Origin: an uncultured Acidobacteriota bacterium
GTDB taxonomy: Bacteria; Acidobacteriota; Thermoanaerobaculia; Multivoradales; UBA5704
Assembly: GCA_963799925.1 (NCBI GenBank)
Contig: CAWCYZ010000002.1
Location: 2,064,477 to 2,128,476, forward strand
Length of the DNA: 64,000 nucleotides
Reading direction: 5' to 3'
This document shows, one piece after another, positions 45,275-63,697 of the stretch. A program made the translations under genes and the position numbers. The stretch's first letter is position 1. The number at the start of each line of letters is the position of its first letter. The notes below the pieces were generated by a model that saw only the letters and a list, made by a program, of their open reading frames with translations, was not told where the DNA came from and made no database searches.

Positions 45275-45829
45275 ATGCGAGCGACGGCCGCGCTCCTCAT
45301 CTCCCTGCTCCTCTATGTTCTCGCCCCCGCTCCCTCGCGCGCCGAGGGACGGATCGCGGGGCTGAACGTGGCGGTCGACGGCGGCCGCGTCGTCGCCAGC
45401 CTGACCCTGGTCGACGGCTTCCGCCATCGCCTGCGCGAGCGCGTCGACAGCGGCCTGCCGACCTCGATCCTCTATCGCTTCGAGCTCGACCGCGACCGCA
45501 CCCACTGGTGGGACCGCTACCTCGAGGAGTGCACGCTCGAGGTGACGGCGATGTACGACGCCGTCGCCCGCCAGTACACGGTCAACTACAAGCTCGACGG
45601 CAAGCTGATCGACAGCCGCACCGTCCGCGACCCGCAGGCGCTCGCCGAGGCGATGACCCGCGTCCAGGCGCTGCCGATCTTCACCCTCGCGAGCCTCCCC
45701 CACGAGTGGCGCCTGCTGGTCAAGGCGCGCGCCGAGCTCGGCACGCGGACGATCCTCTCGATCGTCCCGGTCGCCATCACCACCGACTGGGTCGAGTCGC
45801 GCAAGTTCCGGCCCTCCGGCCCGCCGTAG
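45275..45829 (+). CDS. DUF4390 family exported protein
   Basis: Signal peptide; SGLPTSILYRFEL...WWD; typical position upstream of an NtrY-like kinase. Confidence 0.7.
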   Translation: MRATAALLISLLLYVLAPAPSRAEGRIAGLNVAVDGGRVVASLTLVDGFRHRLRERVDSGLPTSILYRFELDRDRTHWWDRYLEECTLEVTAMYDAVARQYTVNYKLDGKLIDSRTVRDPQALAEAMTRVQALPIFTLASLPHEWRLLVKARAELGTRTILSIVPVAITTDWVESRKFRPSGPP

Positions 45830-45848
45830 GGCCAGCCGAGCCGCCGCC

Positions 45849-48088
45849 GTGGATCTCCGCGAGCGCCTGCGCCGTCACCGCAAGGACAACCGCCTCATCG
45901 TCGGCGGTCTCGCGGCCCTCCTCGCCGTCTTCACCGGTTCCTTCTACCTCGTCCAGCGCAGCCGCGAGCTGCCCCGCCTTCCTGGTCACCAACCGGGTCC
46001 TGCTCTTCGTCCTCTGGTACGTCAACGTCGTCCTCATCCTCGCCATCCTCTTCGTCCTGCTGCGGAACCTCTTCAAGCTGCTGGTCGAGCGCCGGCACCG
46101 CATCCTCGGCTCGACCTTCAAGTTCAAGCTGGTGGCGACCTACGTCGGCCTGTCGCTGATCCCGGTGCTCCTCCTCTTCGTCATCGCCAGCGAGCTGCTC
46201 CAGCGGCTCCGTCGACCGCTGGTTCAACACGCCCCTGAAGCCGGTCCTCGCCCAGGGGGAGGCGGTCGCCCAGGCGTTCTACGAGCGCATCGAGCAGGAC
46301 GACCTGCGCGACGCCGCGCGCGCGCTCGCCGAGGTGCGCTGGTACGACCTGCAGCGGCCCGACGAGCGCCTGCGCCTCAACCACCGCCTGCAGGAGCTGC
46401 TGGGCGAGCTCCGCCTCGACGTGCTCGCCGTCTACGAGGGGACCGAGTTCGTCCACGCGGTGGTCGACTCGCAGGCGGGGATCCCGGAGCTGCCCGAGCC
46501 CGGCCGCGACTTCCTGATCGAGGCGGTGCGCCAGGGGCGCGCGGTGCGGCGCGAGGAGCCGCCGGGAGGGCGCGGCGGGCGCCTGGTGCTCGCCGGCGTC
46601 GCCGGGGCGCCGGTGCCCACCAAGGCCGCGGGCGAGCGGGGAGCTCCACCCCTCGTCGTCGTCGCCGGCACCCGCATCGATCCCGTCCTCGCCGGCAAGA
46701 GCGACGCCCTGGTCCAGCGACTTCCAGGCCTTCCGCCAGCTCGAGGTGCAGAAGGACGACCTCCGCGCCAGCTACCTGCTGATCTTCCTGATGATCACGC
46801 TCTTGATCCTCCTCGCCTCGTCGTGGGTGGGGCTCCACCTGGCGCGGCGGGTGACCGTCCCCATCCAGGCGCTCGCCGAGGGGACGCGGCGGATCAGCGG
46901 CGGCGACCTCGCCCACCGCGTCGACGTCGACGCCGACGACGAGCTGGGGGTGCTCGTCAGCTCCTTCAACCGCATGACCGAGGAGCTGGGGAGCAACAAG
47001 GAGCTGCTCGAGCGCGGCAACCGCGAGCTGCACGGGCACCAACCAGCGGCTGGTCGGCGAGCGGGCGCTGATGGCGGCGGTGCTCGAGAACGTCGCCGCC
47101 GGCGTCGTCTCGACCGATGCCGCCGGCCGCATCTTCACCTGCAACGGCGCGGCGTTGAACATCCTGCGCCAGCGCGAGGAAGACGTGCTCGGCCGCGAGG
47201 CCGCCGAGGCCTGGGCCGATCCCGAGCGGCGCAAGCTCGCGGCGCTGCTCGCCGGCGGGGCGGCGGCGGGCGGCGCCGCGACCTCGAGCCACGAGGTGCA
47301 CCTCGTCCTCGGCGGCGAGTGGAAGACCTTCGAGGCCAAGGTGACGGCGATGCGCGGAGCGGATGGCGCGCTCCTCGGGCGGGTGCTGGTCATCGAGGAC
47401 CTGACCGAGCTGATCAAGGCCCAGCAGCTCGCCGCCTGGAGCGATGCCGCGCGGCGCATCGCCCACGAGATCAAGAACCCGCTGACGCCCATCCGCCTCG
47501 CCGCCGAGCGCCTGCTGCAGAAGAACCGGCTGCGCGACCCGCGCCTCTCGACGGCGATCGAGGAGGCGGTCGACATCATCGTCCGCGAGGTGACCGTCCT
47601 CCAGGAGATGGTCGACGAGTTCTCGCGCTTCGCCCGCATGCCGCGCCCGCGGCCGGCGCCGGTCGACCTGGCGCGCCTGGTCGACGAGACCGTCCACCTC
47701 TACCGCGACCTGAAACCCGGGGTCGCGGTCGAGGGCGAGGTCGGCGCCCGCCTCGACGGCGGTGCTCCTCGACGCCGAGCAGATCAAGCGCGCCCTGATC
47801 AACCTGCTCGACAACGCCGTCGAGGCGACGGATGCGCCCGGCCGCGTCACCATCGCCGCCCAGCCGGTCGACGGCCACCTGGAGATCCAGGTCGCCGACA
47901 CCGGCCGCGGCATCCCTGCGGCGTCCAAGGAGAAGCTCTTCCGTCCCTACTTCTCGACCAAGGGGCGCGGGACCGGGCTGGGGCTCGCCATCGTCCACCG
48001 CATCGTCGCCGACCATCACGGGTCGGTGCGCGTCGAGGACAACGTGCCGCGGGGGAGCGTCTTCATCCTGGAGCTGCCGCTCGAGTGA
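45849..48088 (+). CDS. NtrY-like HAMP/PAS histidine kinase (five apparent +1 frameshifts)
   Basis: Segments in successive frames: TM region, HAMP (DELGVLVSSFNRMT), PAS, RRIAHEIKNPLTPI, NLLDNA, GTGLGL. Confidence 0.85.
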
Positions 48089-48146
48089 GCCGCCCGCGGC
48101 GGCGGCCGGGCCCGCCTTCCCTCCGCGCCCGTGGGATAATCCCCCT

Positions 48147-48602
48147 ATGCCGACGCCCCAGCAGCGCATCGAAGCGGACTTGAAGACGGCGATGAAGGCC
48201 GGCGAGAAGGAGCGCCTCTCGACCCTCCGCATGCTATTGACCGAGGTCAAGAACGAGCGCATCCGGCGCGGCGGCGAGGTGGACGACGCGACCTTCGCCG
48301 GCCTCACGCGGAAGGCGATCAAGCAGCGGGAGGAGGCGGCCGAGCAGTACCGCAAGGGCAACCGCCCGGAGCTCGCCGACAAGGAGGAGAGCGAGGCGAA
48401 GCTCCTCGCCGCCTACCTGCCGGCGCAGGCCGACGAGGCGGCCATCCGCGCCGCCGTCGAGGCGCTCGTCGCCGAGCGCGGCCTCTCCGGGCCGGCGGCC
48501 ATGGGGCCGGTAATGAAGGAGGTCCTCGCCCGCTTCGGCTCCGCCGCGGATGGCGCGACGGTCTCCCGCATCGCCCGCGAGGTGCTCGCCAAGCCCCGCT
48601 GA
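48147..48602 (+). CDS. GatB/YqeY domain protein
   Basis: DLKTAMKA...RLSTLRM...KQREEAAEQY...YLP...MGPVM. Confidence 0.92.
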   Translation: MPTPQQRIEADLKTAMKAGEKERLSTLRMLLTEVKNERIRRGGEVDDATFAGLTRKAIKQREEAAEQYRKGNRPELADKEESEAKLLAAYLPAQADEAAIRAAVEALVAERGLSGPAAMGPVMKEVLARFGSAADGATVSRIAREVLAKPR

Positions 48603-48660
48603 GGAGCTCGGGCGACCGCCGCACCCCGACCCCATCGCTCTCGCATCGCCCACGGACCTC

Positions 48661-50613
48661 ATGCCTTCCCGCGTCATCGTCGGCACCGCCGGCCACATCG
48701 ATCACGGCAAGACCAGCCTGGTGCTGGCTCTCACCGGCATCGACTGCGACCGCTGGGCCGAGGAGAAGGCGCGCGGCATCACCATCGACCTGGGCTTCGC
48801 CCACCTCCGCCTGGGCGACCTCCAGATCGGCTTCGTCGACGTCCCCGGCCACGAGCGCTTCCTCCACAACGCGCTCGCCGGCCTCGGCGGCATCCGGATC
48901 ATGCTGCTGGTGGTGGCGGCGGACGAGGGGGTGAAGCCGCAGACCCGCGAGCACCTGGCGGTCTGCTCTCTGCTCGGCATCCCGGCGGGCTTGGTCGCCC
49001 TCACCAAGGCGGACCTGGCGAGCCCGGACCTCCTGGAGCTGGCCGAGCTCGAGGTCGCGGAGCTGCTGTCGTCGACGCCTTTTGCCGGCGCCCCGATCCT
49101 CCCCGTCGCGAGCCCCACCGGCGCCGGCCTCGCCGAGCTCCGTACCGCGCTCTTCGACCTCGCCGCGCGCCACGCCCGCGGCGCGCCGCCGGCGGACGGC
49201 GAGCCGGGCCGGCCGGCGCGCCTGCCGGTCGATCGCGCCTTCCACCTGCGCGGCCTGGGAGTCGTGGTGACGGGGACGCTCGCCTCCGGCGCGGTGCGGG
49301 TGGGCGATGCGCTGGAGCTCCTGCCGCGCGGCGGCGCGGTGCGGGTGCGGAGCATCCAGGTGCACGGCGAGCCGCGCGAGGCGGCCCTCGACGGCGAGCG
49401 CACCTCGCTCCAGCTGACCGGCGCGGCGCTCGAGGAGCTGCGGCGAGGCGTCGAGCTGGCGACCCCCGGCGCCTTCGCCCCGACGGTGAGCCTCTGCGCG
49501 CGCCTCACCCTGCTCCCCGACGCCCCCGCGGCCATCGAGGGCTCGACGCCGGTGCGCCTGCACCTCTACGCCAGCGAGGCGGTGGGGCGCCTGCGCCCGC
49601 TCCCCGCTGCGGACGGCGCCCCGGGGCGCCTGGCGCCGGGGGAGACCGGCCTCGTCGAGATCCGGCTCGCGGCGCCGGTCGTCGCGGTCCGCGGCGACCG
49701 CTTCATCGTCCGCCGACCCTCGCCGGCGGCGACCCTGGGCGGCGGCGAGGTCTTGGACCCCGCCTGGCGGCGGCCGCGCGGCCGGGCGCTGGCGCCGGCG
49801 CTCGCGGCCGAGACCGGCGTCGCCGGCGAGCTCCCCGCGGCCCTCCTCCACTGGGTGCAGAGCGCCGGGGAGCGCGGCGCCGAGGCGGCCGAGATCGCGC
49901 GCCGGCTGGGGGTCGAGCCGGCGCGGGCGGCCGCCGAGCTGGAGGCTCTCGCCCGCGTCCAGCGCCTCCTGGCGGTCCCCGAGGGCCCCGGCCACGGCCG
50001 GCGTTATCTCACCGCGGCGACCTACCAGCGGGTCGCCCAGCGCGCCCGCCGCGTGCTCAAGGAGTACTTCGAGAAGGACCGGCTGGCCCTCGGCATCCCC
50101 CGCGCCGAGGCGGTGCGGCGCATCCTCCGCGGCCGCGGCGCGGAGCTCGCCGACGTCTACCTCGCCTGGCTCGCGGCGCAGAAGATCCTGGCGGTGTCGG
50201 GCGAGCGCGGCGAGCGGATCACGCTGCCCGGCCGGACGGCCGAGCTGACCGGCGAGGAGTCGCGCCTGGCGCAGGCGGTCGTCGAGCGCTTCGCGCGCGG
50301 CGGCCTGACGCCGCCCGGCCCCACCGAGCTCGCCGTCGACCTCGCCGCCAAGCCGCAGATCGTCGACGGCGTCGTCCGCCACCTCGTCGCGCGCGGCCAG
50401 CTCGTCAAGCTCCCCAACGGTCTCGTCCTCGCCGCCTCGGCCCTGGCCGACCTGCGCCGCGAGCTCCTCTCGATGTCCTGGGAGCGCTTCTCGGTAGGCG
50501 ACTTCAAGGACCGCTTCGGCCTCTCCCGCAAATGGGCGATCCCGCTCCTCGAGCACCTCGACTCGACGGGCGCCACCCGGCGCGTCGGCGACGACCGTCT
50601 GGTGGTGCGGTGA
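48661..50613 (+). CDS. selB: Selenocysteine-specific translation elongation factor
   Basis: GTAGHIDHGKT, RGITIDLGF, DVPGHERF, C-terminal winged helix SRKWAIPLLEHLD. Confidence 0.95.
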   Translation: MPSRVIVGTAGHIDHGKTSLVLALTGIDCDRWAEEKARGITIDLGFAHLRLGDLQIGFVDVPGHERFLHNALAGLGGIRIMLLVVAADEGVKPQTREHLAVCSLLGIPAGLVALTKADLASPDLLELAELEVAELLSSTPFAGAPILPVASPTGAGLAELRTALFDLAARHARGAPPADGEPGRPARLPVDRAFHLRGLGVVVTGTLASGAVRVGDALELLPRGGAVRVRSIQVHGEPREAALDGERTSLQLTGAALEELRRGVELATPGAFAPTVSLCARLTLLPDAPAAIEGSTPVRLHLYASEAVGRLRPLPAADGAPGRLAPGETGLVEIRLAAPVVAVRGDRFIVRRPSPAATLGGGEVLDPAWRRPRGRALAPALAAETGVAGELPAALLHWVQSAGERGAEAAEIARRLGVEPARAAAELEALARVQRLLAVPEGPGHGRRYLTAATYQRVAQRARRVLKEYFEKDRLALGIPRAEAVRRILRGRGAELADVYLAWLAAQKILAVSGERGERITLPGRTAELTGEESRLAQAVVERFARGGLTPPGPTELAVDLAAKPQIVDGVVRHLVARGQLVKLPNGLVLAASALADLRRELLSMSWERFSVGDFKDRFGLSRKWAIPLLEHLDSTGATRRVGDDRLVVR

Positions 50614-54685: not shown

Positions 54686-54701
54686 TGCAATAGTGGCGCC
54701 A
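54686..54701 (-). promoter_or_regulatory. Sigma-54 promoter for the glycosidase-GT-glf operon
   Basis: Minus strand TGGCGC-CACTA-TTGCA, near-consensus, about 30 bp upstream of the start codon. Confidence 0.7.
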
Positions 54702-55023
54702 CGTATTATGGAAGACTCGGGAGAAGCCGCCGAACGCTGGACGGCGAGCGCCGGGAAGCGAGAGCTAAACGCTTCCAGCCTCTCGATTTGCGGTGGAGAT
54801 CGCCGCGGCTGCCGGTGCCCCGCGCCGCTTGGGATCCAGCGTTCTCCCCGCGTCTTACGTCTCGTTAGGGATAATTTATGCCCGGCTCCGGGAATCGGGT
54901 ATCGGCGGCGTATCCAGAGCTTTTGTCACGCTTTAAAGGATAGCCTGGACTCCAAGTAGATAGAGGCAGGCGCCAACGTCCGTCTTGGCCGCGCAGACGT
55001 CCTGCCCGGGAGAGGATAGAACC

Positions 55024-55225
55024 ATGCCCCGCACCACGTTCCGCCGCGTCACCGCCGCTGCCCTGCTCACGCTCGCTCTCGCCACCTCGGCCGCCGCCGT
55101 TCCGCTCGGCGCTGGGCGTGAGCGCACGCCCAGCTCGCCAGCCGGCGAGCTTCTGGACGGTGTTTCTCCACCTGATCGGCGCCTCGGGAGGAACTTTCGA
55201 CCCGAACGGCTGGAAATTGAGGTAA
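55024..55225 (+). CDS. Small secreted peptide with C-terminal DPNG motif (one +1 frameshift between about 55100 and 55142)
   Basis: RBS GAGAGG, ATG 55024, signal peptide MPRTTFRRVTAAALLTLALATSAAA; the +1 frame reads PASFWTVFLHLIGASGGTFDPNGWKLR* (TAA 55223-55225); terminator follows. Confidence 0.65.
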
Positions 55226-55272
55226 CCCGCGGGCGGGTCCCCCTCTCGTCCTCTCGCAGACCTCGAAGGAGA

Positions 55273-55308
55273 ACACCAGCTCTTTTCGGGGCTGGTGTCC
55301 CTTTTCTT
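55273..55308 (+). terminator. Rho-independent terminator after the DPNG peptide gene
   Basis: Stem ACACCAGCTC/GGGCTGGTGT followed by CCCTTTTCTT. Confidence 0.7.
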
Positions 55309-55410
55309 GCAGTTTCGGCAACTGTATTCAGTGGAGGCCTGTTCCGCCTCCTATCGGTTGCCTCGCGCCCGGCCTGGAGCGGGCGCGTGATTTGGAGTGA
55401 GGAGGAGAGG

Positions 55411-56769
55411 ATGAGCTACCACCCCGGCCGTCAGGCCCTCGAGAGGTTCGCGCGCGGCGAGGTCTTCCGTCACGAGGCGAAGAGGATCGTCGAGCACCTG
55501 CGTTCCGGGTGCCGGACCTGCCAGCGCCAGCTCGACGGCCTGCTGCCCCTGGCGGATGAGCCTGGGCTCGATCGCCCCGCGTCGGGCCTGCCGGGGATCG
55601 GGGAGGTGGGCGGCTCATGGCCGCGCCTGGACCTCCAGCGCCTCAAGAGTCAGCTGGCGCGGATCCAGGCCGAGCGCCGGGAGGCCCCGGCGCTGGTCGA
55701 CGGCCTGCTCGCCCTGTCGGCGAGCGAGCGCCAGGCGGTCCTCCGCACGGACCGGCGATACTGGACCCTCGCCGTCTGCGACGGGCTGATCGACTGCAGC
55801 TTTCGAGCTGGGTTCGATGATCCCGCGCCGGCCGTCGCGCTCGCCGAGCTGGCGATCGAGCTCGCCGAACGGGTCGATGCGGCGACGTACGGCCGCTCGG
55901 TGGTCTGCGATCTCAAGGGGCGCGCCTGGAGCTTCCTGGGCAATGCCCGCCGGGTGAGCTCCGACCGGCGCGGCGCGGAGGAGGCGCTCCGCGTCGCCCA
56001 GAGCCTGCTCGACGAGGGCTCCGCCGATCCCCTCGAGCAGGCGCGGATCCTCGACTTCAAGGCCTCGCTCGCCGCCGACCGCGGCCACTTCGACGAGGCG
56101 GTCGAGCTCCTCGACATGGTCATCGACATCTACGGCGAGATCAACGAGCCGCATCGCATGGGGCGGGCGCTGCTGAGCAAGGGGGTCGTCGTCGGGCACC
56201 AGGGCGATCCGGCGGCGGCGGCCGATCTCATCGAGAGGAGCCTGGCTCGCCTCGACCGGGATGGCGAGCCGCGGCTGCTCCTCTGGGCGAACCACAACCT
56301 CGCCTGGTTCATCGACGACGCCGGGCGTCACGCCGAGGCGCTGGCGCAGCTCGAGAGCTTCGCCCACCTCTACGACGAGTTCCCCGACGCTGCGGCGCAT
56401 GCTCGCCGGCTCTGGCTCGTGGGGCGCATCGCGGCCGGCCTGGAGCGATTCGAAGAGGCCGAGGCGGCGCTGCGCGAGGTCCAGCGGTGGTTCATGGCCG
56501 AGGGGGATTCCTACGACGCCGCGGTGGTGACGATGGACCTGGCGGCGCTGCTGCTGCACCTCGGCAGAAACCCCGAGGTCGCGGTCCTCGCCGCCGAGAC
56601 GTTCCCCATCCTGGTGGCGCAGGAGGTCCAGCACCACGCGCTGGCCGCCCTGGTCGCCTTCACCCACGCCGTCGAGACGGATTGCGCGACGCCGAGGCTG
56701 GCGCGGGACATCGCCAATTTCCTCCTGCGGGCGAGCCACAACCCCCGCCTGCAGTTCCAGGCTCACTGA
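55411..56769 (+). CDS. TPR-repeat protein with an N-terminal zinc-finger-like (H-x4-C-x2-C) motif
   Basis: Strong RBS GAGGAGAGG before ATG 55411; MSYHP...HLRSGCRTC; TPR-like helices (AWSFLGNARR, GHFDEAVELLD, ANHNLAWF, ERFEEAEAALRE). Confidence 0.8.
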   Translation: MSYHPGRQALERFARGEVFRHEAKRIVEHLRSGCRTCQRQLDGLLPLADEPGLDRPASGLPGIGEVGGSWPRLDLQRLKSQLARIQAERREAPALVDGLLALSASERQAVLRTDRRYWTLAVCDGLIDCSFRAGFDDPAPAVALAELAIELAERVDAATYGRSVVCDLKGRAWSFLGNARRVSSDRRGAEEALRVAQSLLDEGSADPLEQARILDFKASLAADRGHFDEAVELLDMVIDIYGEINEPHRMGRALLSKGVVVGHQGDPAAAADLIERSLARLDRDGEPRLLLWANHNLAWFIDDAGRHAEALAQLESFAHLYDEFPDAAAHARRLWLVGRIAAGLERFEEAEAALREVQRWFMAEGDSYDAAVVTMDLAALLLHLGRNPEVAVLAAETFPILVAQEVQHHALAALVAFTHAVETDCATPRLARDIANFLLRASHNPRLQFQAH

Positions 56770-60401: not shown

Positions 60402-60808
60402 CGCCTGCTCGCGGCGGGCTCGCCGCCCAGGAAGCCGCGGCGGATCGCCGCCATCCGCTCCCGGTTGACGCCGAAGTCCGAGCGGCCGAGGCGCGAGGCG
60501 GAGCGGAAGTGGAGCCGGCCCGCCGCGTCGTCGAAGGCGAACTCCAGGTCGTCGACGAAGCGGAAGACCGCCGAGCGGACCTCGGCGCGGAGGTAGCCGC
60601 CGCCCTCGAGGTCGTCCTCGACGATCCGCGTCCGCGGCAGCTCCCGGAGGAGCGCCCGGAGCCGGGCCCGCGCTGCCGCGGGGTCGCGGTAGGGGAACGG
60701 CTCCATCCGCTGGCCGGGCCGGCCGCCTTCGCCGCTCGCGACGCAGTTGGGGGTCCGCGGACAGGGCCGCAGGCGGGCGGCGGGGCTGGACGAGCGCGGT
60801 CTGGGCAC
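60398..60808 (-). CDS. DUF1499 domain protein
   Basis: PCPRTPNCVAS, FRFVDDLEF, RSASRLGRSDFGVNRERM. Confidence 0.88.
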   Translation of the reverse strand: MPRPRSSSPAARLRPCPRTPNCVASGEGGRPGQRMEPFPYRDPAAARARLRALLRELPRTRIVEDDLEGGGYLRAEVRSAVFRFVDDLEFAFDDAAGRLHFRSASRLGRSDFGVNRERMAAIRRGFLGGEPAASRR

Positions 60809-60968
60809 GTTCGGGGCTCCGGGGAAGCGGGACGCCGGCGCCGCCGGACGCGAGCGGGGGCCTCCCGGCGTGCTCTATTATGTACGGCGCCGCCGCGGGT
60901 CGAGCCCCGCACCCCGAATCCATCCCTGCACCCAGGAAGCCATTCGAGCGAAGCGAGGCGCGATCCCC

Positions 60969-62405
60969 ATGCTGATGCTGTCCGCCGACGACCGGCGCGC
61001 TCTGTGGCAGCGCCTGATCGAGGCCATCGAGGCCTACACCGAGGAGGTGGGGAGCGCGCGGGTGGCGCCGCGCCTCGATCCCGAGGAGATCCGCGGCCTT
61101 CTCGCCCGCTTCGACTTCGGCGCGCCGGTCGAGCCCAACGAAGCCCTCGACTTCGCCGTCGGCGGCCTCTGGCGCCACCAGGTCCATACCCCCCATCCGC
61201 GCTACTTCGGCCTCTTCAACCCGGCGCCCACCACCATGGGCATCGCCGCCGACGCCCTGGTCGCCGCCTTCAACCCCCAGCTCGCCGCCTGGAGCCACAG
61301 CCCGCTCGCCGCCGAGATCGAGCAGCACCTGGTGCGCGCCTTCGCCGAGCGCTTCGGCTACGATCGCGAGCGCGCCGAGGGGACCTTCACCTCGGGCGGC
61401 GCCGAGGCGAATCACACGGCGCTCCTGGCGGCGCTGCTGCGCGCCTTCCCGGAGGTCGGCCGCCGCGGCCTCCTCGCCCTGCGCAGCCAGCCCGTCCTCT
61501 ACGTCTCGTCCGAGGCTCACCACTCGTTCTGGAAGGCCGCCCGCCTCTGCGGGCTCGGCACCGAGGCGGTGCGCGAGATCCCGGTCGACGGCGAGCTGCG
61601 CATGGAGGTGGACGAGCTGCGCGCCGCGGTCGAGCGCGACCGGCGCGAGGGGTGCTCCCCTTTCATGGTCGTGGCGACCGCCGGCACCACCGCCGCCGGC
61701 ACCGTCGATCCCCTGCCAGCCATCGCCGACCTCGCCGACGAGGAGCGGCTCTGGTTCCACGTCGACGCCGCCTGGGGCGGGGCGGCGGCGCTCGACTCGG
61801 CGCTGCGGCCGATCCTCGCCGGCATCGAGCGCGCGGCGTCGATCACCTTCGACGCCCACAAGTGGCTGTCGGTGCCCATGGGGGCGGGGCTCTTCCTCAC
61901 CCGCCAGACGGGCGTCCTCGAGCGCACCTTCCGGGTGGCGGCCGGCTACATGCCGCGCGACGCCGGCGACCTCTCCGTCGCCGACCCCTACGCGCACTCG
62001 ATCCAGTGGTCGCGCCGCTTCATCGGGCTCAAGCTGTTCCTCTCGCTCGCCGTCGCCGGCTGGCGGGGGTACGAGGAGGCGATCCGCCATCAGACGGCGA
62101 TGGGGGAGCTCCTGCGCGAGCGCCTCCGGGCCGCCTCCTGGGAGCCGGTCAACCGGACCCCGCTGCCGGTCGTCTGCTTCGTCGACTCCACCCGCCCGGA
62201 CGGCGGCTCGGGCGCCTATCTCGACGCCGTCGCCGCCGACGTCGTCGGCTCGGGAGATGCCTGGATCAGCACCGTCCGCCTGGGGGAGGCCCGCCCGGCG
62301 CTCCGCGCCTGCATCACCAACGTCCGCACCGGCCCCGCCGACCTCGACGCCCTGGTGACGGCCCTCGGGGCGGCGCGGCGGCGGACGGCCGTGGCCGTCG
62401 GTTGA
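60969..62405 (+). CDS. Group II PLP-dependent amino acid decarboxylase
   Basis: HPRYFG, TSGGAEAN, TAGTT, HVDAAWG, DAHKW (PLP Lys), QWSRR. Confidence 0.9.
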   Translation: MLMLSADDRRALWQRLIEAIEAYTEEVGSARVAPRLDPEEIRGLLARFDFGAPVEPNEALDFAVGGLWRHQVHTPHPRYFGLFNPAPTTMGIAADALVAAFNPQLAAWSHSPLAAEIEQHLVRAFAERFGYDRERAEGTFTSGGAEANHTALLAALLRAFPEVGRRGLLALRSQPVLYVSSEAHHSFWKAARLCGLGTEAVREIPVDGELRMEVDELRAAVERDRREGCSPFMVVATAGTTAAGTVDPLPAIADLADEERLWFHVDAAWGGAAALDSALRPILAGIERAASITFDAHKWLSVPMGAGLFLTRQTGVLERTFRVAAGYMPRDAGDLSVADPYAHSIQWSRRFIGLKLFLSLAVAGWRGYEEAIRHQTAMGELLRERLRAASWEPVNRTPLPVVCFVDSTRPDGGSGAYLDAVAADVVGSGDAWISTVRLGEARPALRACITNVRTGPADLDALVTALGAARRRTAVAVG

Positions 62406-62609
62406 GCGGTCGCGAAATCGCTACGGTGAAGACGGCATCTGATACTCTCGGCCGGCGCGCCGTGCCGGGTGCGTCGCTGTCACGCCCCGACCGGGCGCGG
62501 CACTCTACTAGTGAAGCCGGCGGTCGCGGGGCTAGAATGTCCTGGCGGGTTCGGCGAGACCCCAGGGGCGGCGCGGTCCGCCGCCCGCAACACCCGTAAG
62601 GAGAACGAC

Positions 62610-62855
62610 ATGAGCTGGGAAGAGAGAGAAGACACCACGATCTACAAGGTCGTCGTGAACCACGAGGAGCAGTATTCGATCTGGCCGGCCCACCGCGAGA
62701 ACCCGCTGGGCTGGAACGACGTCGGCAAGAGCGGCCCCAAGGACGAGTGCCTGGCCCACATCAAGGAAGTGTGGACCGACATGCGCCCGCTCTCCCTGCG
62801 CAAGAAGATGGAAGAGATGGAGAAGAACAAGCAGGCGGACCAGTCGGCCAACTGA
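62610..62855 (+). CDS. MbtH-like protein
   Basis: [13 protein letters not shown]...PLGW...[17 protein letters not shown]. Confidence 0.96.
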
Positions 62856-62908
62856 CGGCGCCGGCCGGCCACGGCCGGCACCATCCATAGAGCGGAATCG
62901 ATCCGAGC

Positions 62909-63697
62909 GTGAGCCCCAGCGCCCCACCCGCCGAGCGGTGGCTCGCCTATCGCGAGCCCAATCCTCGGGCGCGCCTGCGCCTCTTCTGCTTCCCCTATGC
63001 CGGCGGCGGCGCCTCGGTCTACCGCGGCTGGGCGGCGTCGCTGCCGGGGGACGTCGAGGTCTGTCCGGTGCAGCTCCCCGGCCGCGAGAGCCGTCTGCGG
63101 GAGACGCCGTTCACCCACTGGCAGCCGCTGGTGGAGGCCTTGGCCGAGGTCCTGCCGCCCTACTTCGAGATGCCGTTCGCCTTCTTCGGCCACAGCATGG
63201 GGGCGCTCTTGAGCTTCGAGCTGGCGCGGCTGCTGCGCCGCCGGGGCGGGGCGCTGCCGGTCCACCTCTTCGTCTCGGGCCGCCGGGCGCCGCAGCTCCC
63301 GGCCCGCGAGGAGCCGATCCACGAGCTCCCCGAGGCCCAATTCATCGAGAAGCTCCGCGAGCTCAACGGCACTCCCGAGGAGGTGCTCCAGCACGGCGAG
63401 CTGATGCGCCTGCTCCTGCCGATCCTCCGCGCCGACTTCGGGGTCAACGAGACCCACCAGTTCCACGACGAGGAGCCGTTCGACTTCGGCATCTCGGCGT
63501 TCGGGGGCCTGGGCGACGAGGACGTCAACCGGGAGGATCTGGAGCTCTGGAAGACCCACACCCGCGGCCGCTTCCGCCTGCGGATGCTGCCCGGGGACCA
63601 CTTCTTCCTCCACGGCGCCCGCGACCTCATCGCCGAGGCGATGTCGCGCGACCTGGCCGAGCTGTCGAGCCAGACCCTCTCCGAACGCGCGCGGTGA
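62909..63697 (+). CDS. Type II thioesterase
   Basis: CFPYAGGG, QLPGRE, GHSMG, GDHFF. Confidence 0.94.
   Translation: MSPSAPPAERWLAYREPNPRARLRLFCFPYAGGGASVYRGWAASLPGDVEVCPVQLPGRESRLRETPFTHWQPLVEALAEVLPPYFEMPFAFFGHSMGALLSFELARLLRRRGGALPVHLFVSGRRAPQLPAREEPIHELPEAQFIEKLRELNGTPEEVLQHGELMRLLLPILRADFGVNETHQFHDEEPFDFGISAFGGLGDEDVNREDLELWKTHTRGRFRLRMLPGDHFFLHGARDLIAEAMSRDLAELSSQTLSERAR

Follow-up and report, generated by a model that had tools for sequence, protein, structure and literature searches.

A small DPNG peptide gene beside a zinc-finger/TPR protein gene in Thermoanaerobaculia: a candidate peptide-gated anti-sigma-type cassette

Peptide sensing by cytoplasmic receptors built from tetratricopeptide repeats (TPR), as in the RRNPP systems, is generally considered a speciality of the Firmicutes and of the phages that infect them. 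In the streptococcal ComRS system, the output is the expression of an alternative sigma factor. Pairs of extracytoplasmic function (ECF) sigma factors and anti-sigma factors form the commonest 'third pillar' of bacterial signalling, and their inputs are mostly unknown. In the animal protein LGN, Asn residues of the 'LGNA' helix-A motif hold extended peptide ligands. Here we describe a locus that can be compared with each of these systems. It lies in a 64,000-nucleotide stretch of DNA (the window, G+C content 71.4%) from an uncultured Acidobacteriota bacterium (Thermoanaerobaculia; Multivoradales; UBA5704; assembly GCA_963799925.1, contig CAWCYZ010000002.1, positions 2,064,477 to 2,128,476). 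The locus carries a gene for a small peptide that ends close to an Asp-Pro-Asn-Gly (DPNG) motif, followed by a gene for a 452-amino acid protein with an N-terminal zinc-finger-like domain and a TPR body (ZnF-TPR). A preliminary description of the same DNA, made from the letters of the sequence, had proposed a peptide-sensing module at this place.

We put at roughly 0.55 the probability that the two genes of this locus form a peptide-gated anti-sigma-type module. The first gene would encode a pre-peptide of about 66 amino acids composed of a Sec-type signal peptide whose cleavage site is of the small-x-small form, a variable linker, a very hydrophobic amphipathic helix and a Gly-rich hinge, the invariant DPNG turn lying 2-4 residues from the C-terminal end. 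The second would encode a soluble protein of 452 amino acids in which an HHCC zinc anti-sigma-like N-terminus precedes an LGN/Rap-like TPR superhelix. The last ~11 residues of the peptide (..SGTFDPNG and the tail) would serve as ligand in the concave TPR groove, where an invariant ladder of Asn, Arg and Trp residues would hold the peptide tail. Occupancy of the groove would then alter the hold of the N-terminal domain on an ECF sigma factor encoded elsewhere in the genome. Sigma-factor binding by the window copy, the sign of the peptide effect and the place of its action, either after export and re-uptake in a quorum-sensing-like manner or before export, are the parts of this model that we infer.

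The putative receptor passes the Pfam cut-off for TPR_12 (PF13424; E 1.2e-11, 45 bits vs 30.1), and no helix-turn-helix (HTH) family was matched by Pfam in the window protein or in the set of N-termini. Its 145 homologs are nearly all 445-465 amino acids long and start at the HP..C..C motif; those that carry a name are Thermoanaerobaculia proteins annotated as 'hypothetical' or 'TPR repeat protein'. In an alignment of 105 sequences, the invariant positions are H29, L30, C34, C37, L176, N178, A179, R181, A196, L220 and A310, H4 and P5 being nearly so. The AlphaFold2 (AF2) model (pLDDT 87.8, pTM 0.81) begins with three short helices, which a disordered linker (amino acids 48-71) joins to a long helix and then about eight TPR repeats. 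No membrane helix is seen in this model, from which a cytoplasmic receptor is predicted. The TPR body resembles LGN (Foldseek E 6e-6; VIA-align Z 24.7 with 4wnd) and, by VIA-align, the peptide receptors of Firmicutes: Rap/CSF (4gyo, Z 23.4), NprR (5dbk, Z 23.2), the phi3T phage Rap/pheromone complex (Z 23.2) and RapF/PhrF (Z 22.2). The Z values range from 21.9 to 23.4 for Rap, NprR and phage Rap complexes, and those from LGN to RapF fall within ~3 units of each other.

Upstream of the TPR body, H4, H29, C34 and C37 are invariant in 64 N-terminal sequences. The HHCC ligand set and spacing of the 452-amino acid protein resemble those described for ZAS domains in the excerpted text of PMC11506125. 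A profile of the N-terminal domain matches the anti-sigma factors DdvA (E 0.0015), RslA (E 0.0073) and ChrR (E 0.057), and one paralog (L051) passes the Pfam cut-off of zf-HC2 (28.2 bits vs 22.2). The helices of the modelled domain (residues 7-14, 20-31 and 35-44) superimpose, in Foldseek matches with non-significant E values, on RslA, ChrR and RsiW with a root-mean-square deviation of 1.2-1.4 A over 37-42 columns, and the canonical spacing Hx3Cx2C is present in some paralogs. Sequence and fold signals agree, and this weak but consistent evidence suggests that the N-terminal domain is related to ZAS domains.

The peptide family is characterised by strong conservation of its C-terminal part. 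DPNG is found in all 48 unique ortholog peptides, preceded by Met in 42 of them. Gly residues at positions -4 and -3 are present in 39 and 44 of the 48, Leu at -12 in 43, and the tail after DPNG is two amino acids long in 34. In five precursors (L032, L036, L037, L127 and L139), a (D/E)Gxx[MIL]DPNG unit is repeated two to three times. A signal-peptide-like start, judged by a crude rule only, was found in 53 of 61 unique peptides, 52 of which also have a small-x-small site. In the window copy, the SFWTVFLHLIG segment has a hydrophobic moment exceeded by 1% of shuffled sequences. Involvement of an asparaginyl endopeptidase or of labile Asn-Gly/Asp-Pro chemistry at the DPNG turn is a speculation. 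Readings of these peptides as ribosomally synthesised and post-translationally modified peptides, bacteriocins or carriers of a sorting signal (PEP-CTERM-like) were discarded, no modification enzyme, transporter or sortase-type gene recurring beside the cassettes. One Cys-containing copy in the same genome (C4:596211) has no TPR gene detected nearby and is followed by an apparent tRNA gene, recognised by eye.

The pairing of the two genes recurs throughout the genome from which the window is taken and among its relatives. A search of this genome gave 38 matching stretches, which a tblastn search merged into 25 TPR loci. Its six-frame translation contains 192 DP[ND]G motifs, of which 20 are in small open reading frames (ORFs) with a signal-peptide-like start, and 14 of these 20 ORFs are no more than 1.5 kb away from a TPR locus. 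A hidden Markov model (HMM) of the peptide core retrieved 16 six-frame segments at E<0.05, and each of these has a TPR locus at a distance of 1.3 kb or less; three of them, the frame-2 segment of the window and two others, were outside the training set. That small DPNG peptides accompany TPR homologs in Thermoanaerobaculia, as the preliminary description had suggested, was borne out by a scan of flanking regions. A peptide is present at 15 of the 25 loci of the genome and at 55 of 76 related loci, one of the latter (L109) being doubtful. The related loci come from a set of 80 on genome contigs, all of them from Thermoanaerobaculia, Acidobacteriota or 'Holophagales' metagenome-assembled genomes, and 76 have more than 450 nucleotides upstream. 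The 'TDPDG' ORF upstream in L109 looks like a chance match. When only the best locus per genome with enough flank was taken, a DP[ND]G ORF was found upstream in 16 of 28 relatives, a set that overlaps with the 76 loci.

Across the order, the TPR protein is present in 34 of 41 genomes (E<=1e-60). Peptide-profile matches occur in 24 of the 41, all of which have the TPR family, and in none of the seven genomes that lack it. The profile matches 153 database proteins of about 70 amino acids, all named 'hypothetical protein' and devoid of Pfam domains. Five DPNG peptides tested against NCBIfam matched no family, and a protein Atlas search with a DPNG peptide returned only unnamed Acidobacteriota clusters (score <=0.88). 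When the peptides ahead of 134 loci were labelled with the HMM, sensitivity was too low: the label 'none' was given to several loci that have clear motif peptides. The numbers of labels on the tree cannot be relied on for this reason, and the tree served only to place the window protein in its clade. Since the cassette recurs in this manner and the peptide is conserved at the codon level in comparison with its ortholog, a chance origin of the peptide frame can be excluded.

A structural prediction of the complex was made with the intact pair of the same-genus genome G001, using the full receptor and peptide residues 26-65. The co-fold score was 0.64 (0.69, 0.64 and 0.57 in the three runs), the best of three controls reaching 0.00. 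By rough counts, with alignments of our own supplied, 58 of 80 solved complexes attain a mark of 0.64, as do 2 of 110 mismatched pairs. The runs share at least 58% of their contacts, and the partner pLDDT is at least 45, so the fold of the partner itself is uncertain. Only peptide residues 55-65 (SGTFDPNGSRK) are placed confidently, in the TPR groove, where the interface (window numbering) includes N178, R181, D215, S219, D223, R252, H295, N296, W299, R332 and W335. The DPNG tail is thus predicted to rest on N178 and N296, the Asn residues to which the preliminary description had drawn attention. Complete invariance or conservation of at least 90% is seen at 17 of the 31 groove contact residues vs 111 of 452 overall (P 1.7e-4; P 9e-4 when the TPR body only is considered), an enrichment that depends on the alignment given to the model. 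The co-fold thus supports binding and does not show it. Mutual information between peptide positions and TPR columns, calculated on 56 unique pairs uncorrected for relatedness, was dominated by high-entropy columns and was set aside.

A link with sigma factors is found in related loci. In L034, L039, L041, L043 and L044, an ECF sigma gene (Sigma70_r2 and r4, 176-195 amino acids) is located directly upstream of the ZnF-TPR gene, the stop of the sigma gene overlapping or abutting the start of the latter; L038 is a sixth sigma-adjacent case. A peptide gene stands ahead of the sigma gene in four of these six loci, namely L034 (genome G028), L038 (G036), L039 (G008) and L041 (G025). The peptides of L038, L039 and L041 have a signal peptide and a hydrophobic helix, with tails ..MDPNG.., ..IDGNGGR and ..IDPIGNS, respectively, and that of L034 is a 25-amino acid leaderless variant ending in ..INPYG. 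Complete peptide / sigma / anti-sigma cassettes therefore exist in these four relatives. The genome of the window itself encodes three sigma factors of the cognate group, 36-58% identical.

Other elements were observed around these sigma genes. The genes of the linked ECF group share the upstream pattern TGGACA/TAGACA-N14-TGTTAC (C4:1241100-1241194 in the genome of the window; L034, L043 and L044), with N15-TGGTAG in L039, and the 16-mer TTCGATAAGCTGGACA is identical in the region upstream of the C4 sigma gene and in that of L034. This shared pattern may correspond to an autoregulated promoter. The gene that follows one of the cognate-group sigma genes (C4:1241729-1243570, plus strand) encodes a 614-amino acid protein with a C-terminus that is SARP/BTAD-like by eye. 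A gene for a sigma-54-dependent activator (AAA+, Fis-type HTH) is found directly upstream of the cassette in L043 and L044, ahead of the ECF sigma gene. Such a gene also precedes the peptide gene at the paralogous locus C1:1543677 (C1:1545.2-1546.8 kb; L048:8635-9798, the copy checked with Pfam). The activator is a possible higher-level input to the cassette.

Several observations weigh against a peptide-gated anti-sigma-type module. At the N-terminus, the window protein has no Pfam zf-HC2 match at E<=1 and zf-HC2 matches only two of 64 N-termini (E<=0.01). The motif reads Hx4Cx2C, the canonical form being Hx3Cx2C, and a Foldseek search with the N-terminal domain alone, which returned nothing at E<=0.001, places DdvANt, RslA, ChrR and RsiW in its top rows at non-significant E values (>=0.77). 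In the genome of the window, the 25 TPR loci have no sigma-70-family or ECF gene closer than 10 kb, the nearest being 16-31 kb away, and none of the three cognate-group sigma genes adjoins or precedes a ZnF-TPR gene. No peptide was found upstream at 10 of the 25 loci of this genome and at 21 of the 76 related loci. An import step must be assumed because the receptor is cytoplasmic and most peptides have a signal peptide, and a single OppA-type binding protein (SBP_bac_5) was found in the genome, which is compatible with import and silent on function. By the crude rule, eight of the 61 unique peptides have no signal peptide, and L098 and L104 were apparently misflagged; with ~10 of 61 peptides devoid of it, export may therefore not be obligatory. 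Some paralog peptides of the same genome have Cys residues on either side of DPNG (C-[ILV]-DPNG-x(1-4)-C), and many of these precursors contain two such units. Such brackets suggest disulfide-closed loops and point to folding outside the cytoplasm. The dependence of the groove enrichment on the input alignment belongs here too, and the co-fold may owe part of its pass to likeness with solved TPR-peptide complexes (LGN, Rap-Phr).

The ZAS-like output domain of the preliminary description is supported, with caveats: consistent, if weak, sequence and fold signals and the ECF sigma gene upstream in six related loci speak for it, and the zf-HC2 failure and the Hx4Cx2C spacing of the window protein speak against it.

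Many of the same facts could reflect co-regulation without binding. An exported DPNG peptide, periplasmic, extracellular or membrane-active, would share a regulon or operon with the regulator, and the TPR groove would bind something else. This explanation, which we consider unlikely, agrees with the signal-peptide-like starts of 53 of 61 peptides, with the Cys pairs that flank DPNG in several paralogs and with the very hydrophobic segment before the tail. It also agrees with the terminator and separate promoter-like block between the two genes, and sigma/anti-sigma operons generally often carry adjacent target genes. Against it stand a co-fold that puts the invariant tail on invariant groove residues, with controls at 0.00, and the confinement of the peptides to genomes with the TPR family. 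The short DPNG unit repeated in some precursors is like that of pheromone precursors. In addition, variants that have lost the signal-peptide core have kept the start-codon region, the hydrophobic helix and a GG-x-MDPNG tail (L091/L107, L098/L105, L019=L089, L020=L083, L074, L097 and L104). By our reading of the tree, this loss took place in several separate places, at least five, and the retention of the C-terminal core fits a cytoplasmic partner.

The same leaderless variants, conserved in the sister loci L091/L107 and L098/L105, would also suit an intracellular role in which the TPR protein binds the unexported pre-peptide, either to escort it or to sense the load on export, with neither re-import nor cell-to-cell signalling. 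A receptor with no membrane helix in its model, the single OppA-type binding protein of the genome and a co-fold that needs only the C-terminal tail, already present in the precursor, point the same way. We nevertheless find this quite improbable. Of the 53 peptides with a signal-peptide-like start, 52 have kept a canonical signal peptide with its small-x-small site. The multiple DPNG units of some precursors and the loops bracketed by Cys suggest that the peptides are processed and folded outside the cytoplasm, and an escort role leaves the anti-sigma-like domain unexplained. The peptide-gated anti-sigma-type module remains our preferred explanation.

At the level of the DNA, the peptide gene of the window is interrupted. 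Frame 1 from the ATG at 55024 encodes a basic N-terminus and a hydrophobic Ala/Leu-rich core, signal-peptide-like, and frame 2 reads ..SFWTVFLHLIGASGGTFDPNGWKLR up to a stop at 55223-55225. The distance from the ATG to the end of this stop is 202 nucleotides, which is no multiple of three. Third-position GC is highest in frame 1 to ~55100 and in frame 2 at ~55105-55195, with the switch between ~55100 and ~55150. The ortholog in genome G001 (L017) has an intact ORF of 65 codons at the corresponding place, and its alignment with the window DNA (85% identity) contains a single 1-nucleotide gap, in the ortholog. A second intact relative, P0353, is a 66-amino acid protein from another public contig, found by the peptide-profile search. 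Its residues 1-37 are identical to frame 1 of the window (55024-55134) and its last 29 residues correspond to frame 2 (55136-55222) with one mismatch. As 37 and 29 add up to 66, exactly one base is surplus, at about 55135. Removal of one base between 55095 and 55145 had been proposed beforehand to restore a 66-amino acid peptide with signal sequence and DPNG tail, stopping at 55225, and both P0353 and L017 confirm it.

Both sides of the break have kept the conservation pattern of coding DNA. In comparison with L017, part 1 of the peptide gene has 15 identical, 9 synonymous and 14 non-synonymous codons. Among the 19 codons of the core (W..G), 11 are the same, 7 differ without changing the amino acid and only 1 changes it, a pattern from which it follows that frame 2 is under purifying selection. 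The frame-2 segment also matches the peptide HMM (E 6e-5), though it is absent from the training set. A pseudogenised peptide gene beside an orphan receptor, created by a real frameshift in this strain, would explain why the surplus base stands in the assembly, and orphan receptors exist, 10 of the 25 TPR loci having no peptide. We regard such a frameshift as very improbable in view of the intact, near-identical P0353, the coding-type conservation of both halves and the state of the assembly, whose estimated completeness is 84.6% in 6 contigs, vs 100% for the sister genome.

Similar defects were found in other genes of this assembly, in keeping with the +1 errors noted before across the contig. 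The lepA gene is split over two frames (G000:C2 ~1185.8-1187.8 kb, minus strand; L058 10800-12830), its first part (..NFSIIAHIDHGKSTLADRI..) being in one frame and a LepA_C piece of 157 amino acids in another. In the window, a sensor histidine-kinase gene (45800-48100, plus strand) is spread over all three plus-strand frames with at least four switches, which indicates dense indel errors in the assembly. The HATPase_c domain of this kinase was confirmed by Pfam, and its membrane, HAMP-, PAS- and HisKA-like parts were recognised by reading the translation. Since P0353 is intact and the lepA and kinase genes are broken, the break at ~55135 is most likely an assembly indel. Among Logan contigs of relatives (run X1, share 0.06), the match of greatest length, with 43 differences, extends over 55288-55760, and none spans 55135 at high identity.

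Downstream of the peptide stop, third-position GC collapses from 55195 to 55330, lasting until the next gene. The terminator proposed in the preliminary description was recovered there by a terminator scan: its hairpin (55273-55298) has a fold energy of -23.4 kcal/mol (z = -3.58), and 1 of 200 shuffled sequences was as stable. The second gene, claimed to have a strong ribosome-binding site (RBS) of its own, is indeed preceded by an AGGAGG box ahead of the ATG at 55411. It extends over 55411-56769 and encodes the 452-amino acid protein with H29-x4-C34-x2-C37, a conserved H4, GNARR (N178) and ANHN (N296). The longer frame in the ORF list (54985..56769, TTG start, 594 amino acids) is two genes and not one, and its earlier dismissal as an artefact was correct: the start codon of orthologs and paralogs corresponds to the ATG at 55411, their products have about 450 amino acids, and the database entry for the window protein has 452. 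That this frame, open from 54985 to 56769, encodes a genuine single protein with an N-terminal signal peptide has a negligible probability, as long open frames are common in a 71% G+C genome and this one crosses the terminator hairpin and the fall in third-position GC, its upstream part has its own stop in a frame conserved in orthologs, and the 145 homologs begin at the HP..C..C motif with the shorter length. The features of the locus are given in Table 1.

Table 1. Position of the features of the DPNG peptide and ZnF-TPR locus (coordinates of the window) and of Cys-bracketed paralog peptides (contig coordinates of the same genome, strand in brackets).
Feature	Position	Strand	Basis and remarks
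Promoter-like block TGTCAC, 16 nt, TGGACT (upstream of peptide gene)	54924..54951	+	Conserved in aligned leaders of the window, L017, L018 and L027; low confidence
RBS GGGAGAGGA of peptide gene	55008..55016	+	Sequence reading; 8 nt ahead of ATG 55024, spacing kept in ortholog leaders
Peptide gene part 1, frame 1, 37 codons: Sec-type signal peptide and linker start	55024..55134	+	Residues 1-37 of P0353; aligns with L017
Surplus frame-breaking base	55135 (placement ambiguous within 55134-55136)	+	Comparison with P0353; 1-nt gap vs L017
Peptide gene part 2, frame 2: amphipathic hydrophobic segment, Gly-rich linker, FDPNG tail, 4 further residues	55136..55225	+	Stop TAA 55223-55225
Intrinsic-terminator-like hairpin, 11-bp stem, and T-rich tail CCCTTTTCTT	55273..55308 (hairpin 55273-55298)	+	Terminator scan, fold energy
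Promoter-like block TGTCCC, 16 nt, GCAACT (upstream of TPR gene)	55296..55323	+	Overlaps 3' arm of hairpin; ortholog conservation
RBS GAGGAGGAG of zinc-finger/TPR gene	55398..55407	+	Sequence reading; position kept in ortholog alignment
ZAS-like domain of three short helices with the zinc-type ligands H4, H29, C34 and C37, disordered linker aa 48-71, long helix aa 75-101	55411..55740	+	Conservation, profile matches, models
TPR superhelix, about eight repeats, aa 115-452; stop 56767-56769	55753..56769	+	Pfam TPR_12, AF2, Foldseek, VIA-align
Cys-bracketed paralog peptides	C2:1823418-1823726(-), C4:396448-396870(+), C4:596211-596534(-), C1:1230871-1231188(+)		Sequence reading

The regulatory sequences of the locus were compared with those of orthologs. 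Each of the 16 orthologous intergenic regions that were aligned contains GCAACT, even at loci without peptide gene, and the TGTC(A/C)C box ahead of the TPR gene is conserved among the same 16 regions (the L025 sequence ends before the box). A sigma-70 consensus scan gave no match at the block upstream of the peptide gene (54924..54951). A genome-wide count of the promoter-like pattern (8 vs ~25 expected) was uninformative, the pattern having missed one of two known sites. A hairpin in the 5' untranslated region of the peptide mRNA, conserved by eye, was rejected (RNAalifold -1.85 kcal/mol; single-sequence fold z -0.15), and Rfam gave no match in 54700-55450. No neighbour gene is common to the window and 16 loci of the same genome, the flanks being otherwise unrelated housekeeping genes.

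Elsewhere in the window, genes for a pyridoxal phosphate-dependent decarboxylase, an MbtH-like protein and a type II thioesterase follow one another at 60747-63697 (plus strand) and seem to mark where a non-ribosomal peptide synthetase cluster enters the window, the rest of it lying beyond. An intact gene for SelB, the selenocysteine-specific elongation factor (687 amino acids), is located at 48550-50613 (plus strand), so the organism probably makes selenoproteins.

A search of the literature on RRNPP systems in Acidobacteriota, on zf-HC2 combined with TPR, on DPNG peptides and on soluble ECF anti-sigma/TPR proteins showed no description of the cassette among the papers listed, part of which were judged by title and opening of the abstract. 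The one paper listed for TPR and signal peptides in Thermoanaerobaculia (PMC8528874) concerns the metabolism of seafloor Acidobacteriota, and the two listed for RRNPP and anti-sigma factors in Gram-negative bacteria concern clostridia. The excerpted text of the ECF re-classification (PMC7826278) mentions no soluble ZAS-TPR anti-sigma group, and its supplementary tables may list the sigma group. We propose tentatively, as one possibility, that dozens of cassettes of an exported DPNG peptide and a cytoplasmic TPR receptor make up an undescribed class of peptide signalling in Thermoanaerobaculia. Its output would be the sequestration or release of ECF sigma factors through the zinc domain, a logic resembling that of RRNPP which would have arisen separately in a phylum of diderm bacteria. 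Such a class could derive from an ancestral peptide / ECF sigma / anti-sigma operon, sigma-less cassettes having spread and converged on few sigma factors.

If these proposals are true, an anti-sigma factor would have a defined ligand that can be synthesised, and peptide signalling would extend to an abundant and barely cultured diderm phylum of soils. The orthogonal peptide/receptor pairs, about 15 per genome, would be possible switches for synthetic biology. The locus also illustrates how small genes such as that of the DPNG peptide can be hidden in high-GC genomes by long spurious ORFs combined with indel errors.

Compared with known systems, the best fold and sequence matches are to animal proteins, LGN/Pins (GPSM2) and the TPR of kinesin light chain (4wnd Z 24.7; profile E 4e-7). 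The 'LGNA' helix-A motif is shared with LGN, and N178 and N296 are in the predicted interface. The likeness is one of fold and binding mode only, these proteins being eukaryotic scaffolds with no zinc domain and no cognate secreted peptide. The Rgg/SHP and ComR/ComS systems of streptococci also combine small hydrophobic peptides, some without classical signal peptide, with a cytoplasmic repeat-protein receptor, but their receptors are HTH transcription factors without anti-sigma domain.

With the class I ZAS anti-sigma factors (RsrA, ChrR, RslA, RsiW and DdvA), the cassette protein shares an N-terminus of ~45 residues, predicted to form three helices, with four conserved zinc-type ligands, H4..H29x4C34x2C37. 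The HHCC ligand type is also described for RslA in the excerpted text of PMC11506125. DdvANt, RslA, ChrR and RsiW are the top sequence and fold matches, statistically weak, and, judging from gene order, family members of relatives share a transcript with an ECF sigma gene. In contrast to these ZAS proteins, most cassette proteins have one extra residue between the His and the first Cys, and most copies, including that of the window, are not beside a sigma gene. The cassette protein is predicted to be a soluble, cytoplasmic TPR sensor, whereas the sensor of DdvA is transmembrane/periplasmic and that of ChrR is a cupin.

Finally, the RRNPP systems (Rap-Phr, NprR-NprX, PlcR-PapR, PrgX and AimR-AimP) of Firmicutes and phages offer a likeness in organisation. 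In both, a gene for a cytoplasmic TPR receptor stands beside that of a small exported pro-peptide whose C-terminal end is the ligand, as predicted here. Paralogous cassettes are numerous per genome, as for Rap-Phr, the TPR bodies are structurally similar (Z 21.9-23.4), and the peptide tail lies in the concave groove in the co-fold. The cassettes differ from RRNPP systems in their host, a diderm Acidobacteriota lineage, in the position of the peptide gene, which is upstream of the receptor gene and not downstream, and in the DPNG turn, which is common to all paralogs, the peptide thus not being paralog-specific throughout. Sequence kinship is at the general TPR level only (RapH E 0.004), and the output is a zinc anti-sigma-like domain in place of an HTH or a Rap-type 3-helix/phosphatase domain. 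Of the RRNPP-type pairing put forward in the preliminary description, the adjacency of an exported-type peptide gene and a TPR receptor gene thus stands, and membership of RRNPP, with its HTH or phosphatase output, does not: the cassette family would work like RRNPP but is no member of it.

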